A stretch of 64,000 nt of DNA from assembly GCA_036377715.1 (NCBI GenBank), contig DASUXW010000161.1, forward strand, positions 9,870-73,869, written 5' to 3'. Shown one piece after another: positions 21,232 through 49,199 of the stretch (position 1 is the stretch's first letter; the number at the start of each line of letters is the position of its first letter). Below the pieces are notes generated by a model, which did no database searches, had not been told where the DNA came from, and worked only from the letters and a program-made list of their open reading frames with translations. Source of the stretch: Gemmatimonadales bacterium. GTDB lineage: Bacteria > Gemmatimonadota > Gemmatimonadetes > Gemmatimonadales > GWC2-71-9. A program made the position numbers and the translations under genes.

Positions 21232-21432
21232 TCAGACCTTGCGGACGTTGGAGGCCTGTAGACCCTTGGGGCCTTCGACTACCTCGAATTCCACGTTGTC
21301 TCCCTCGGAGAGGGAGCGGAACCCCTCGGCGACGATAGCGGTGTGGTGAACGAAGACGTCCTTGCCGCCGTCCTGCGCGATGAAACCGAACCCCTTTGCG
21401 TCATTGAACCACTTGACCGTGCCCTTCGCCAT
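21232..21432 (-). CDS. cspA: Cold-shock protein (CSD)
   Basis: '[18 protein letters not shown]', 'VFVHHTAI'. Confidence 0.95.
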
Positions 21433-21626: not shown

Positions 21627-21666
21627 GGCGGACAGGCGGACAGGCGGACAGGCGGACAGGCGGACA
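21627..21666. repeat. Tandem octamer repeat (GGCGGACA) x5
   Basis: Five perfect consecutive copies, read directly. Confidence 0.95.
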
Positions 21667-21679
21667 GAGCGGTTCATCG

Positions 21680-22035
21680 GTGCGGCGCGTGGGCGGAGCT
21701 TCCGGAACAAACCGTAGACAAGACGGACGGCGAGATCGCGCTGCGAGTCGAGCGATTGCCAATCGTCGTCGGACAGCAGTCCTCGATCGTGGCTGAATCG
21801 GAGGAGCTAGGCGAGCTCGGAGCGCGACCCAAGGGACATATGGAGAAAGCGTTCGAATTCCCGTTCGCCCGGCTTCGCCGCACCTTCGGCGAGGTTGGTC
21901 GGCATCGAGAGCACCGCCTTGCGCACCTGCGAAGTCACCCCATACAACTCGCTTCGAGGCCATCGATCCGTTCGCGAGGAAACCGCCAGCACCGACTGGT
22001 GCGCGGCCCGCGTCGAAGCGCTCGAACGCCATCAT
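21680..22035 (-). pseudogene. Four-helix-bundle protein of the 23S rRNA intervening-sequence family (PF05635/TIGR02436-like), disrupted
   Basis: 'MMAFERFDA' in one frame, then 'AHQSVLAVSSRTDRWPRSELYGVTSQVRKAVLSMPTNLAEGAAKPGEREFERFLHMSLGSRSELA' in another frame. An in-frame TAG follows (21807-21809), then 'LLRFSHDRGLLSDDDWQSLD...VYGLFRKL'. Confidence 0.7.
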
Positions 22036-22105
22036 ACTTCAACGGTGGTGAATACCGCCGGTTCTTGACAGCCCAATCCACGCCTGCATCATCCCGCCCG
22101 CCCGT

Positions 22106-22627
22106 CTATCTCAACACGACTCCTGCCGTCCGCAATTCATGATCGAGCAGCCAGCGTTTGCGTGCCAGGCCGCCGCCGTAGCCGACCAGCGAGCCGTCCT
22201 TTCCGACCACGCGGTGACACGGAATGAGGATGGCGAGGTGATTGGCGGCCACCAGCCAGCCGATCTGCCGCGGGTGCAGACGGGTGGCGCGGGCGATGTC
22301 ATCGTACGAACGGGTCTCGCCCAGCGGGATCTTCCGCAGGGTCTTGAACACCGCCACCTGCGCCGGCGAGAGCTCGAACCAGTGACGCAGGTGCTCGGGA
22401 AATGGGAAAGCCCGGGGAGACCCGGCGAAGTACTCGTCCAGCCACGCGGCGGTGATGCGGCATGGCCCCTGGCCGATGTGAAGCTCCGGAATCGCCGAGC
22501 GGAGCCGCACGGCCCACTTCACGTCGGGGGTCCGGTGCGGAAACTCCACTACCAGCGGCCCTGTCTCACATTCCACTACTGTGAGTGCGCCGATGGGCGA
22601 ACTGTAGGTCGTCCATTCGACCTGCAT
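22106..22627 (-). CDS. ogt: Methylated-DNA--protein-cysteine methyltransferase
   Basis: Active site 'IPCHRVVGKDGSLVGYGGGLARKRWLLDHE'. Confidence 0.9.
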   Translation of the reverse strand: MQVEWTTYSSPIGALTVVECETGPLVVEFPHRTPDVKWAVRLRSAIPELHIGQGPCRITAAWLDEYFAGSPRAFPFPEHLRHWFELSPAQVAVFKTLRKIPLGETRSYDDIARATRLHPRQIGWLVAANHLAILIPCHRVVGKDGSLVGYGGGLARKRWLLDHELRTAGVVLR

Positions 22628-22730
22628 GCTGGTCTCCGGGGAGCTTCACAGGAAAGGTAGCCGCCGCCGCCCACTGGAGCCAACGGGCGCCCGCTGACGC
22701 CGCGGCCACCTTCACCTTACATTTAGCGCC

Positions 22731-23342
22731 ATGACGTCACCTCAGTCGCTCGTGGTACGCACGTTTACCGATCGCGCCGAGGGGCTGTCCCACTTCGTGC
22801 TCCGGGCCGGTGAAGCGCCGCGGCTCCTTGCGTTCGACGACGCGCTTGGCTGTCCGCTCGAGACCGCGCTCGCGGCGCTCGAGTGGACCGGCGCGGTGGG
22901 GATCCTGCTCGACGACGATCAGCTGCACGCCGCCCGGCTCACCAGCGAGACGGCGGCCGCGGTGGTCGAGCGTAAGGGGCCCGACGGCCGGAGGTTCGTG
23001 TATCTCGGACCCCGGCTCGACGCGCCGCCCATGGATGTGTTCGAGGGTGCGGTGCTGTTTGACGAGCCCGGGGTCAAGGCGGTCGAGTTCACCCACCGCG
23101 CGCACGCCCTGGCTCACTTCCTCCGGGCGACCTCGGGCGCCGGCGCGCTGCTCGCCCTGCTCGGCCGGCGCGCTCCGGAGCTCCGCCACCTTCGGCGCTG
23201 GCTGGGGCCGATCATCCAGCGGCTCGACGTGCCCTGTCCGCTGGTGGCGGGGTGGTTTGCGGCCAGCTCGGCAGGGTGTCTGTTCGCCTCGCTCGAGGCG
23301 GAACCGGTGTACCGCTACGTTGAGGTCGGGCTGGAGCCCTGA
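22731..23342 (+). CDS. Hypothetical protein (203 aa)
   Basis: Long ORF with ordinary composition. No recognisable family. Confidence 0.5.
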   Translation: MTSPQSLVVRTFTDRAEGLSHFVLRAGEAPRLLAFDDALGCPLETALAALEWTGAVGILLDDDQLHAARLTSETAAAVVERKGPDGRRFVYLGPRLDAPPMDVFEGAVLFDEPGVKAVEFTHRAHALAHFLRATSGAGALLALLGRRAPELRHLRRWLGPIIQRLDVPCPLVAGWFAASSAGCLFASLEAEPVYRYVEVGLEP

Positions 23343-23479
23343 CGGAGCGTCAGGACCACGTGTGGGAGTGTGGATTCACATCTCCACATTGTGTGGACGG
23401 ACGGGGTAGGCTGCGGGCCGAGCACGGGTTAGCTATCCACACCGCTGGTCGATAGAAGTGGCGTAACCCGAATAAAGTC

Positions 23480-23515
23480 AGGCACTTGCGAGATTATCGC
23501 GGGTGCCTATTTTCA
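23480..23515 (+). terminator. Intrinsic terminator candidate (12-bp stem including two G.U pairs, GAUUA loop, ATTTTCATT tail)
   Basis: AGGCACTTGCGA-gatta-TCGCGGGTGCCT followed by a T-rich run. Confidence 0.6.
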
Positions 23516-23906
23516 TTCTACGCGCTCCGTTGGATGCGTGCTGGGGCCCCGAGCTTCAGTAACGGCCGGCAGGGCGGGCTCGAGCGGGATATCAGGGGAG
23601 AGGGCCGACGCAACCAAGGGCTCAGGCTCTCGTCGATCCTGGTGATCACCCCGGCTCGGGCAGGTGAAGCCAGTCGCGTGCTTCATCCACTCCGATCTGG
23701 CGCCTCGGAGTGCAGTGCGAACGGTCGGTCCGCGACCCGATCCGACTCGCAGCGCTCGAATGGACGAACCAGGCAGGATGGCCATCCAGCTTGGGGATCA
23801 AAACCGAGGCCTCACCACGCCCTCCCGAGCGGCGAACCAGCCAACCGGTGGCAGGTGGGAGAAGAACGGCGGCAGCAATGCCCCGACCCCGGCATAGTCC
23901 ACACGT

Positions 23907-23947
23907 GGGACGGCCGCCTAGCCACGACTGGGCGGCCGTTCCGTTTT
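23907..23947 (+). terminator. Intrinsic terminator candidate (12-bp GC stem, then GTTTTCT)
   Basis: GGGACGGCCGCC-12 nt loop-GGCGGCCGTTCC, then GTTTTCT. The U tract exists only on the + strand. Confidence 0.6.
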
Positions 23948-24949
23948 CTATCCTATCTCATTGCCGTCGTTCGGCGGCAGACCCCAGTCGCTCACACCCC
24001 GGTAGGCCCGGCGCCGGTCGAGCTGCCAGAGCTTGGCGCTCACCAGGGCATCGCCCGTGAAGTTGGCCGGGTCGCCGAGCGCGTCGGCCATGCCGGCGGT
24101 CTTGGCGCTCGCGTTGTCGGCGTAGTGGAGCACTTCGGCCTCGAGCGTCATCGGGGGAATGGCGGCGCCGAACTCCGGCTTGCCGTGATGGGAGGCGATG
24201 AGGTGGTGCAGCACCGTGAGCTCGCGGTCGGTGCATGGCGCCGGGTCTTCGCGCGCCACGCGCCGGTCGAGCATGAGAAGACCGAGCGTCACGTGCCCAA
24301 GCAGCGCGCCGCACTCGGTGTTCTCGAAAACGCCTTCCCACCGATATGCCTCGAGCTTGCCGATATCGTGCAGCAGCGCGCCGGCCAGCACCAGCTCCGA
24401 GTCGGCGTGGCAGGCCTTGGCAATGGCCCGCCCGATAGCCGCGACTTCGCAGGTGTGCCGGAGCAGCCCGCCGAGCTCGGCGTGGTGCCCGACGGTGCTC
24501 GCGGGACACTCCTGGTAGCGCCGGCGGAACTCGTCGTCGGCATAGAACAGCTCCAGCGTGCGGCGGAGCCGCGGACGCCGGAGCTCGCCGCGCCAGCGGT
24601 CGAGCAGGTCCCAGTAGGGTGCGACCTCACGGACGGAGCGGACGAGCTGACGCCAGTCAATGGCGCCCCGCGGGAGGATGCGGATCGAGCTGATCTTGAG
24701 CTGGCGCTTGCCGTTGTACTGGCCCACTTCGCCGATGACCTGGGCCACGTCTCCCCGGGCTATGCCGGCGATACGCACTTGATCTTCGGGCCAGAAGGGA
24801 GCGCTCGGGATCTGCCCGTAGCAATTGCCGAGCACGAGGGTGGTGAAGGCGCCGCGGCCGGAATCGCGCTGCTCGACCTCGAGCACGAGCAGCGGGTCCT
24901 GCACGCGGCTTCCCACGGCGAGCTGCTTGAGATCGGGCGGCCCCGACAT
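23948..24949 (-). CDS. OB-fold + HD-domain protein (YhaM-like 3'-5' exoribonuclease family)
   Basis: N-terminal OB 'VLGNCYGQIPSAPFW...VIGEVGQYNGKRQLKI'. HD region 'HHAELGGLLRHTCEVA...ALLHDIGK'. Start taken at the MSGPPD Met. Confidence 0.8.
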   Translation of the reverse strand: MSGPPDLKQLAVGSRVQDPLLVLEVEQRDSGRGAFTTLVLGNCYGQIPSAPFWPEDQVRIAGIARGDVAQVIGEVGQYNGKRQLKISSIRILPRGAIDWRQLVRSVREVAPYWDLLDRWRGELRRPRLRRTLELFYADDEFRRRYQECPASTVGHHAELGGLLRHTCEVAAIGRAIAKACHADSELVLAGALLHDIGKLEAYRWEGVFENTECGALLGHVTLGLLMLDRRVAREDPAPCTDRELTVLHHLIASHHGKPEFGAAIPPMTLEAEVLHYADNASAKTAGMADALGDPANFTGDALVSAKLWQLDRRRAYRGVSDWGLPPNDGNEIG

Positions 24950-25025
24950 GGCTGACTCGGCGGCTGGATTGGGCACAAGATAGGTCCGTCTGTCTCCGGC
25001 GGGAACTCGGCAGTAGGTTGGAGCC

Positions 25026-25403
25026 ATGGATCCGATGCACCTGCTCGTGCTCGAGCGCGACCCGGACCGGCGGGACGCGCTGTTGGCGACGCTGCGCGGC
25101 GCGGGGCATCACGCCGTCGCGGCTCCCGATGCGGGGGCGGCGGCGACTGCGTTGGCCGCGCCCGGCTTCGACGCGCTGGTGCTCGACCTTGGCCTGCCCG
25201 ACCTGGACACGGCGCGGCTGCGCGAGGCACTGGTGCCGACGGAGACGGCGGCGCCCGACTCCCTGGAGGCGGCCGAGCGACGCCACATCGCCCTGACGCT
25301 GCAGCATACCGGCGGCAACAAGCGACGCGCGGCGCTGCTGCTTGGCATCTCCCGATCCACCTTGCTGCACAAGGTGCGGAAGTACGGGCTCGGCGCCATT
25401 TGA
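25026..25403 (+). CDS. Truncated receiver + Fis-type HTH protein ('mini-NtrC', no AAA+ domain)
   Basis: REC-like 'LLVLERDPDRRD...DALVLDLGLPD', followed directly by HTH_8 'RRHIALTLQHTGGNKRRAALLLGISRSTLLHKVRKYGL'. Confidence 0.7.
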   Translation: MDPMHLLVLERDPDRRDALLATLRGAGHHAVAAPDAGAAATALAAPGFDALVLDLGLPDLDTARLREALVPTETAAPDSLEAAERRHIALTLQHTGGNKRRAALLLGISRSTLLHKVRKYGLGAI

Positions 25404-49069: not shown

Positions 49070-49128
49070 CTTGCAGCGCTCCGCTCGGCTTGCGCAACCC
49101 CTTGTGCAGTCTTACGTTTGCTGTCCCC

Positions 49129-49199
<71 letters not shown>

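Follow-up and report, generated by a model that had tools for sequence, protein, structure and literature searches.

The OLE RNA (ornate, large, extremophilic) of the Firmicutes is a large orphan structured non-coding RNA (ncRNA) of one lineage. In the ROOL and GOLLD RNAs, which typically occur in prophages or near transfer RNA (tRNA) genes and are patchily distributed, recent cryo-electron microscopy work has shown that loops mediate higher-order assembly. Several small RNAs of E. coli are encoded beside their own transcription factor (OxyS/OxyR, GcvB/GcvA, SgrS/SgrR); they are 100–230 nt long, weakly structured and act through short base pairing. Large orphan RNAs are, to our knowledge, rare, and each has opened new biology. 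The raiA motif RNA is a further large orphan class of structured bacterial ncRNA (PMC10861870). Here we describe a locus of this general kind in a Gemmatimonadales bacterium, on a stretch of 64,000 nucleotides (contig DASUXW010000161.1, positions 9,870 to 73,869; hereafter the window). An earlier sequence-only reading had pointed out a 605-bp gap at 23343–23947, between convergent genes at 22731..23342 (+) and 23948..24949 (−), as a candidate unannotated RNA locus with two terminators and two transcripts; the gap and its borders are as it described. We favour, with a probability of roughly 0.6, the explanation that a single, self-contained gene fills the gap, encoding a new ncRNA of ~428 nt with extensive structure and preceded by a 170-bp regulatory region.

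The composition of the gap also agrees with what had been noticed: its G+C content is 64.3%, against 70.4% across the window, and the third-position G+C (GC3) of its open reading frames (ORFs) is 0.56–0.73, against 0.87–0.88 in the two flanking genes. As a whole, the gap folds more stably than shuffled sequence (z = −4.5). The adjoining HD-domain protein is 58–84% identical in seven species-representative Gemmatimonadales metagenome-assembled genomes (MAGs). In five of these seven the gap DNA is 83–87% identical over ~650 bp, and in the relatives compared it is better conserved than the flanking protein (72–84% identical); the two most distant MAGs retain a core of ~200–300 bp. A broader family was gathered from metagenomes with an exact 20-base core pattern (window 23700–23721), which matched at least 120 contigs. 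The first 100 were examined: five were chance matches, and 95 carry the RNA core, in single copy each, scoring 61–126 bits under a covariance model (R1) for which 89 distinct core sequences were used. The window itself holds one copy (122 bits), with the next best match at 16 bits. Gemmatimonadales genomes, and also many metagenome contigs from soil, thus carry the RNA as a conserved single-copy element.

The family provides clear evidence of a conserved fold. RNAalifold, applied to a non-redundant set of 46 full-length sequences, predicts 107 pairs, and 66 of these have stayed paired despite changes on both sides; a count on that structure likewise has 66 of 112 pairs changed on both sides. 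Standard pairs fill 96.9% of the cells, against 35–45% when the 3′ partners are slid by one to three columns, a contrast that is inflated, since the structure under test was itself derived from this alignment. Sliding lowers the covariation score from 0.368 to no more than 0.097, and none of 500 shuffles matched any observed pairing measure. Compensatory pairs and pair types far exceed both the slid and the shuffled controls, as expected of a conserved structured RNA in general. The frequent G-U pairs establish that the RNA is read from the + strand. The locus therefore encodes a folded, non-coding RNA with ~19 helices backed by compensatory changes and with a conserved intrinsic terminator. 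Comparison with relatives thus found the region conserved and its base pairs covarying, and these two findings, together with the codon periodicity and indels discussed below, lend strong support to the proposal that the gap is an RNA locus missed by annotation and not a decayed gene.

Of the two terminators proposed on the + strand, a pattern scan recovers both hairpins (23480–23508 and 23905–23944), with T-rich sequence after each; two such sites, against 0.8 ± 1.0 in shuffled sequence, are not significant alone. The second, which the scan detects with 17 pairs, is borne out as the terminator of the RNA by conservation and covariation, with compensatory changes in 7 of 12 stem pairs and a T-run that follows in the relatives (46 sequences). 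The first is better read as the promoter of the RNA: the spacer of this promoter also forms the hairpin in the source genome, and the “T-run” behind it is the conserved −7 box. The hairpin reaches −10 kcal/mol or lower in 41 of 89 relatives and is weaker than −6 kcal/mol in 20, while 88 of the 89 have retained 19 nt between TTG and TA; GGCACTTGCG (23481–90) is present in 72, and the −7 box (23508–13) reads TAnnTT in nearly all. Variants of the promoter in relatives are TATCTTTG, TATCTTAG or TATCTTGG. Where it is strong, the first hairpin may stop read-through from the upstream 203-aa gene.

The sigma-A promoter of Bacteroidetes consists of TTG, a spacer of 17–23 nt and TAnnTTTG at −12 to −5 (PMC9723704; 10.1101/172254). 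The −33/−7 geometry ahead of the RNA fits this description, the consensus being that of Bacteroidetes and the host a member of the Gemmatimonadales. The only TAnnTTTG in the 64-kb window (TACGTTTG) precedes the tRNA gene at 49129 (+), its end lying 9 nt from the gene, with TTGCG 20 nt upstream of the box (49090–49128), so that the organism would appear to use the Bacteroidetes-type promoter for stable RNA genes; this is direct sequence evidence that Gemmatimonadales may use such −33/−7 promoters. By the same conserved geometry, transcription of the RNA would proceed from a Bacteroidetes-type sigma-A promoter (−33 CTTGCG, 19 nt, −7 TATTTTCA), and the placement of the two boxes puts the predicted start near A23520 and the length of the RNA at ~428 nt.

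Upstream of this promoter lies an ordered set of motifs (Table 1). The first cluster of boxes forms overlapping inverted repeats at approximately −150 to −125 from the predicted start. In 89 distinct relatives the boxes occur at fixed positions, with variable spacers between them, and their half-sites vary independently without compensatory change; TCCACA of box 2 (23436) is kept in 85 of the 89. In 1.35 Mb of related loci, the inverted-repeat box patterns are confined to the position upstream of the RNA. The A-rich element next to the −33 box (consensus cGTAACCCGAAgAAA, held at 80% or more in 76 relatives, with invariant positions in alignment A1) may be an UP-element-like sequence or a further protein site. 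From these features we infer that the 5′ 170 bp (23343–23515) form a regulatory region, not a second RNA, and the conserved geometry suggests that a protein binding the TGTGGA/TCCACA boxes (23369–23441) would control transcription of the RNA. We also considered the TGTGGA/TCCACA repeats as RNA hairpins of an attenuator-like switch, and rejected this for lack of compensatory change.

Other explanations have to be weighed against a single, independently transcribed RNA. A decayed or unrecognised protein-coding gene would account for the long ORFs that cross the gap in this 70% G+C genome and for the 203-aa ORF that a public caller placed over a homologous region (L202 4609–5220), but substitution variability is flat across codon phases (0.20/0.21/0.19), 227 of 242 indels have lengths that are not multiples of three (189, 38 and 15 for remainders 1, 2 and 0), the gap ORFs have no Pfam match and a GC3 well below the 0.87 of real genes, and substitutions follow base pairing instead. 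Flat periodicity and non-triplet indels therefore exclude a decayed gene, and the chance that the gap codes for protein is practically nil. A divergent housekeeping RNA, such as RNase P RNA, transfer-messenger RNA (tmRNA), 6S or signal recognition particle (SRP) RNA, or a described large class (OLE, raiA, ROOL, GOLLD, HEARO) missed by its model, would fit the size, single copy, strong tRNA-type promoter, strong terminator and order-wide conservation. Already by eye the sequence-only reading had found no match to RNase P, tmRNA, SRP or 6S, and Rfam 15 and ARAGORN agree. Among all 4227 Rfam 15 models no family matched the RNA: the whole window gave only the tRNA at 49129 at gathering score, 23250–24050 only a chance small nucleolar RNA match at E ≤ 10 (E = 3.9), and nine diverse homologues only chance microRNA and ctRNA matches at E ≤ 5, while ARAGORN found no tRNA and no tmRNA in 22000–25000. 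In the window and the nine homologues, neither RNaseP_bact_a/b nor the models for OLE, raiA, ROOL, GOLLD, HEARO and others gave a real match to the RNA; 6S and SRP RNA are likewise without an Rfam match, the consensus being a row of hairpin domains and not a rod, and by eye we saw no P4-type conserved RNase P sequences, tRNA-like end or tag ORF. We regard a missed known family as hardly credible. Full-text searching of the literature turned up no earlier description of such an RNA in Gemmatimonadetes, nor of any functional RNA specific to this lineage, and we file the RNA as a new family within a known kind, the stand-alone structured bacterial ncRNAs. The RNA might instead belong to the gene that follows it, as a riboswitch-like cis-regulatory leader: its core would be the sensor of a ligand, and its 3′ terminator would decide whether transcription reaches a gene for a protein with a receiver domain and a Fis-type helix-turn-helix (HTH). 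This gene is indeed downstream on the same strand in 89 loci, starting ~70–100 nt past the terminator where the HD gene is missing, and aptamers typically have a compact core that does not vary. However, the convergent HD gene follows the RNA and intervenes in the window and in 42 other loci, where control by read-through is thereby excluded; covariation maintains the terminator as a long, perfect G+C stem, and we saw no conserved pairing that would compete with it; a −33/−7-like promoter can be read directly ahead of the regulator gene in L110, and 430 nt far exceeds known aptamer-plus-platform units. A cis-regulatory leader is therefore unlikely.

The remaining alternatives concern the 5′ part of the gap. 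The sequence-only reading had implied two transcripts, a 60–150-nt RNA ending at 23480–23515 and an RNA of ~400 nt. The 12-bp hairpin and T-rich run are present at that site, and the TGTGGA/TCCACA repeats could fold as alternative RNA hairpins, but no promoter-like site was found upstream of the short segment, the repeats change one-sidedly and uncompensated, and the hairpin is weak or absent in about half of the relatives, whereas TTG-19 nt-TAnnTT persists in 88 of 89. Because the 5′ motifs are uncompensated and the promoter spacing is kept with or without the hairpin, one RNA of ~430 nt with a regulatory region is the better description, and a separate short transcript is very unlikely. The boxes could also mark a site controlled by DnaA, either an origin with which the RNA is associated or a DnaA-regulated promoter: four to five nTnTCCACA sites or their complement lie within ~75 bp, and, when one mismatch is allowed, box 2 alone in the whole window matches TTATCCACA. 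Against this, dnaA and dnaN were not found among the neighbours, gene orientation does not switch at 23 kb (10.6 kb on + versus 7.9 kb on − to the left), the change in GC skew is weak and no AT-rich unwinding element was found. A replication origin was rejected on the evidence of dnaA/dnaN, orientation and skew, and DnaA control in either form is quite improbable. The protein with the receiver domain and Fis-type HTH would be the most likely candidate regulator, with DnaA as the alternative; we favour the former because inverted repeats suit a dimeric HTH protein, the boxes are unique to this locus, and its gene is constantly adjacent.

The single RNA that we favour comprises a near-invariant core between more variable domains (Table 1). 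The 5′ hairpin domain aligns poorly across the family as a whole. In the peripheral domain that follows, both partners have changed in every one of the 10 pairs of the closing helix and the 7 pairs of helix 3, and one lineage (L101, L128, L169, L191, L196) has lost the interior of the domain by deletion. Both-sided changes likewise occur in all 8 pairs of the closing helix of the 3′ domain and in most pairs of helices 14, 15 and 17, and another lineage (L083, L088, L157, L167, L171) has this domain swapped for one short hairpin. A closing helix that would join the 5′ end (ACG) to CGU ahead of the terminator occurs among close relatives but is not kept family-wide, and we do not claim it. Within the core, stems covary in hairpins 6, 8 and 10. 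The sequence-only reading had singled out two hairpins here, of which CACTCCGA-N9-TCGGAGTG (23688–23712) exists and covaries, with UA, CG and GC at one pair. The other, GGTCG-N5-CGACC, does not represent the pairing that is conserved: at the closing pair, G23728:C23737, C:G and A:U also occur, which fits GGUCGG/CCGAUC with the 8-nt loop UCCGCGAC and breaks the alternative.

Two loops of the core are complementary, GUCGC (23673–77) to GCGAC (23732–36), so that a loop-loop contact is possible; by it, the core (23663–23755) would probably be compacted. The variable peripheral domains, missing in some lineages, would serve as scaffolding. Because the core is invariant and compact and the peripheral domains are dispensable, the anatomy is consistent with a trans-acting RNA in which the three hairpins of the core offer a conserved partner a specific platform to bind, in a ribonucleoprotein (RNP) or as a regulatory RNA. 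We hold this only tentatively and would not give it even odds. A wider proposal is that the RNA represents an undescribed large structured class and a core component of the Gemmatimonadales, working as an RNP or by self-assembly, whose core binds a partner or does chemistry, which possibly oligomerises through GUCGCG/CGCGAC and GCGC loops, and which is switched on by a dedicated regulator; as a whole, this must be called doubtful.

Table 1. Features at and around the RNA locus (window positions). Promoter, protein-binding and transcript-start assignments are predictions.
Feature	Position	Strand	Details
203-aa conserved hypothetical protein (5′ neighbour)	22731..23342	+	separate from the RNA
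Putative transcription-factor-binding array, box cluster 1	23369..23397	.	TGTGGA (23369–74), TTCACA, TCCACA (23383–88), TGTGGA (23392–97)
Box 2, DnaA-box-like TATCCACA	23434..23441	.	~−85 from predicted start
Near-invariant A-rich element CGTAACCCGAATAAA	23462..23476	.	just 5′ of the −33 box
Predicted promoter of the RNA	23485..23515	+	−33 CTTGCG (23485–90), 19-nt spacer, −7 box TATTTTCA (23508–15)
Structured ncRNA, ~428 nt	~23520–23947	+	5′ end A23520 predicted from promoter; 3′ end in U-tract 23944–23947
5′ variable hairpin domain	23520..23577	+	pairs with some compensatory changes among close relatives
Peripheral domain	23578..23661	+	closing helix GCUCGAGCGG/CCGGCUCGGGC (23578–87/23651–61)
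Inner helices of peripheral domain	23593–96/23638–41, 23600–06/23625–31, 23642–44/23647–49	+	
Near-invariant core, three adjacent hairpins	23663..23755	+	89% mean column identity (alignment A6, 89 distinct sequences)
Core hairpin 1	23663–71/23678–87	+	loop CCAGUCGCGUG
Core hairpin 2	23689–95/23705–11	+	loop UCUGGCGCC
Core composite stem	23712–20/23747–55 and 23723–28/23737–42	+	loop UCCGCGAC
3′ domain	23758..23904	+	long-range closing helix GAAUGGAC/GUCCACAC (23758–65/23897–904), four further helices inside
Intrinsic terminator of the RNA	23905..23947	+	15–17 bp G+C-rich stem (23907–42), UUUU 23944–47
OB-fold and HD-domain protein, resembles YhaM 3′-5′ exoribonuclease	23948..24949	−	Pfam HD and NCBIfam YhaM, below cut-off
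125-aa protein, truncated receiver domain and Fis-type HTH	25026..25403	+	HTH_8 at 8e-13

Several points weigh against this account, in addition to the inflated pairing contrast noted above. The invariance of 23700–23721 was imposed by the exact search pattern, though that of the other invariant blocks was not, and a collection made with such a pattern missed more divergent members of the family. The start at A23520 is set by promoter geometry alone. The proposed loop-loop pairing shows no covariation, both loops being invariant, and the constancy of the core would fit a ligand-binding or catalytic centre just as well. The 203-aa protein offers no clue to a partner or function, having no match in Pfam, NCBIfam or the sequences of PDB, and its AlphaFold2 model (predicted local distance difference test score, pLDDT, 61) gave no fold match.

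The gene order around the RNA is more constant on some sides than on others. The receiver/Fis-HTH gene is the most constant neighbour of all. On the 5′ side this is the 203-aa gene, which lies upstream on the same strand in 78 loci and has more than 1300 homologues, all hypothetical and all from Gemmatimonadales. In some lineages (L093, L103, L109, L191, L196, L199) an extra small gene with a signal-peptide-like start sits between the 203-aa gene and the boxes of the RNA; it overlaps the stop codon of the 203-aa gene, and ~550 bp then separate the latter from the boxes. The HD gene is a variable neighbour: only 43 loci have it between the RNA and the gene for the Fis-HTH protein, and wherever it is present its stop codon (23948–23950, −) directly abuts the U-tract of the RNA. 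It shows a presence/absence polymorphism, being missing in many related loci (e.g. L110, L169, L201).

To the left of the locus the window holds some further features. An unlisted gene for a 66-aa cold-shock protein lies at 21232–21432 (−), and the ~170–190 bp of non-coding sequence upstream of it (−), to ~21620, may be a long 5′ untranslated region of the cspA type. A tandem array of the 8-bp unit GGCGGACA (21627–21672; 5.6 copies, 97% match) occupies sequence of lower GC that separates the cold-shock gene from a gene for a four-helix bundle. An ORF at ~21690–22035 (−) matches the family of 23S rRNA intervening-sequence proteins (PF05635, 5e-14); the match covers profile positions 17–72 of 106, and the listed ORF may be truncated or start further upstream.

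Gemmatimonadota are among the most abundant soil bacteria and have barely been cultured. If the wider proposal above is correct, the locus would add a new lineage-wide functional RNA with a standing comparable to that of OLE or raiA. A length of ~430 nt, ~110 conserved pairs and a core that is nearly constant across the order point to selection as strong as that on housekeeping RNAs, and with promoter, regulator sites, RNA and terminator all within 600 bp, the locus would make a clean test case. There is also a practical side, in that public gene callers annotate the RNA as a hypothetical protein. In one public assembly (ERZ25039483), the 203-aa hypothetical protein of L202 mentioned above was put exactly on the RNA homologue, and protein databases therefore hold spurious “proteins” from this locus. 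In the window, a 489-aa ORF at 23486–24955 (+) crosses the RNA and runs antisense to the whole HD gene; it is an artefact of high G+C content, with a GC3 of 0.68 in its gap part.

Compared with the RNAs introduced at the outset, the Gemmatimonadales RNA combines traits of several. Like OxyS, GcvB and SgrS, it has a dedicated, conserved upstream protein-binding array, and the gene of a small DNA-binding regulator is its constant neighbour; unlike them, it is 430 nt long with ~110 conserved pairs and an invariant core, and the link between its regulator and the boxes is only putative. It falls in the size class of RNase P RNA and tmRNA, and it resembles housekeeping RNAs in its promoter type, which is that of the window's tRNA gene, in its intrinsic terminator and in its order-wide conservation, whereas in architecture it has hairpin domains lined up about a core of three hairpins and is not a P4-centred ribozyme, a tRNA-like and tag-encoding RNA or a 6S rod. 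As in ROOL and GOLLD, loops stand out: two invariant ones are mutually complementary (GUCGCG/CGCGAC) and a third carries the palindrome GCGC, although any oligomerisation of the Gemmatimonadales RNA is pure speculation, and, in contrast to both, for which neither model matched, it is chromosomal, syntenic and vertically conserved. It differs from OLE and raiA in matching neither Rfam model and in belonging to the phylum Gemmatimonadota, and from OLE also in being shorter, in having no adjoining genes for membrane-protein partners like oapA/B/C and in possessing its own conserved upstream array for binding a putative regulator. In its general features, it nevertheless resembles OLE and raiA: it appears lineage-restricted, with neighbours that give no evident function, and it is a stand-alone, single-copy, multi-domain RNA of several hundred nucleotides with strongly conserved blocks and abundant covariation.

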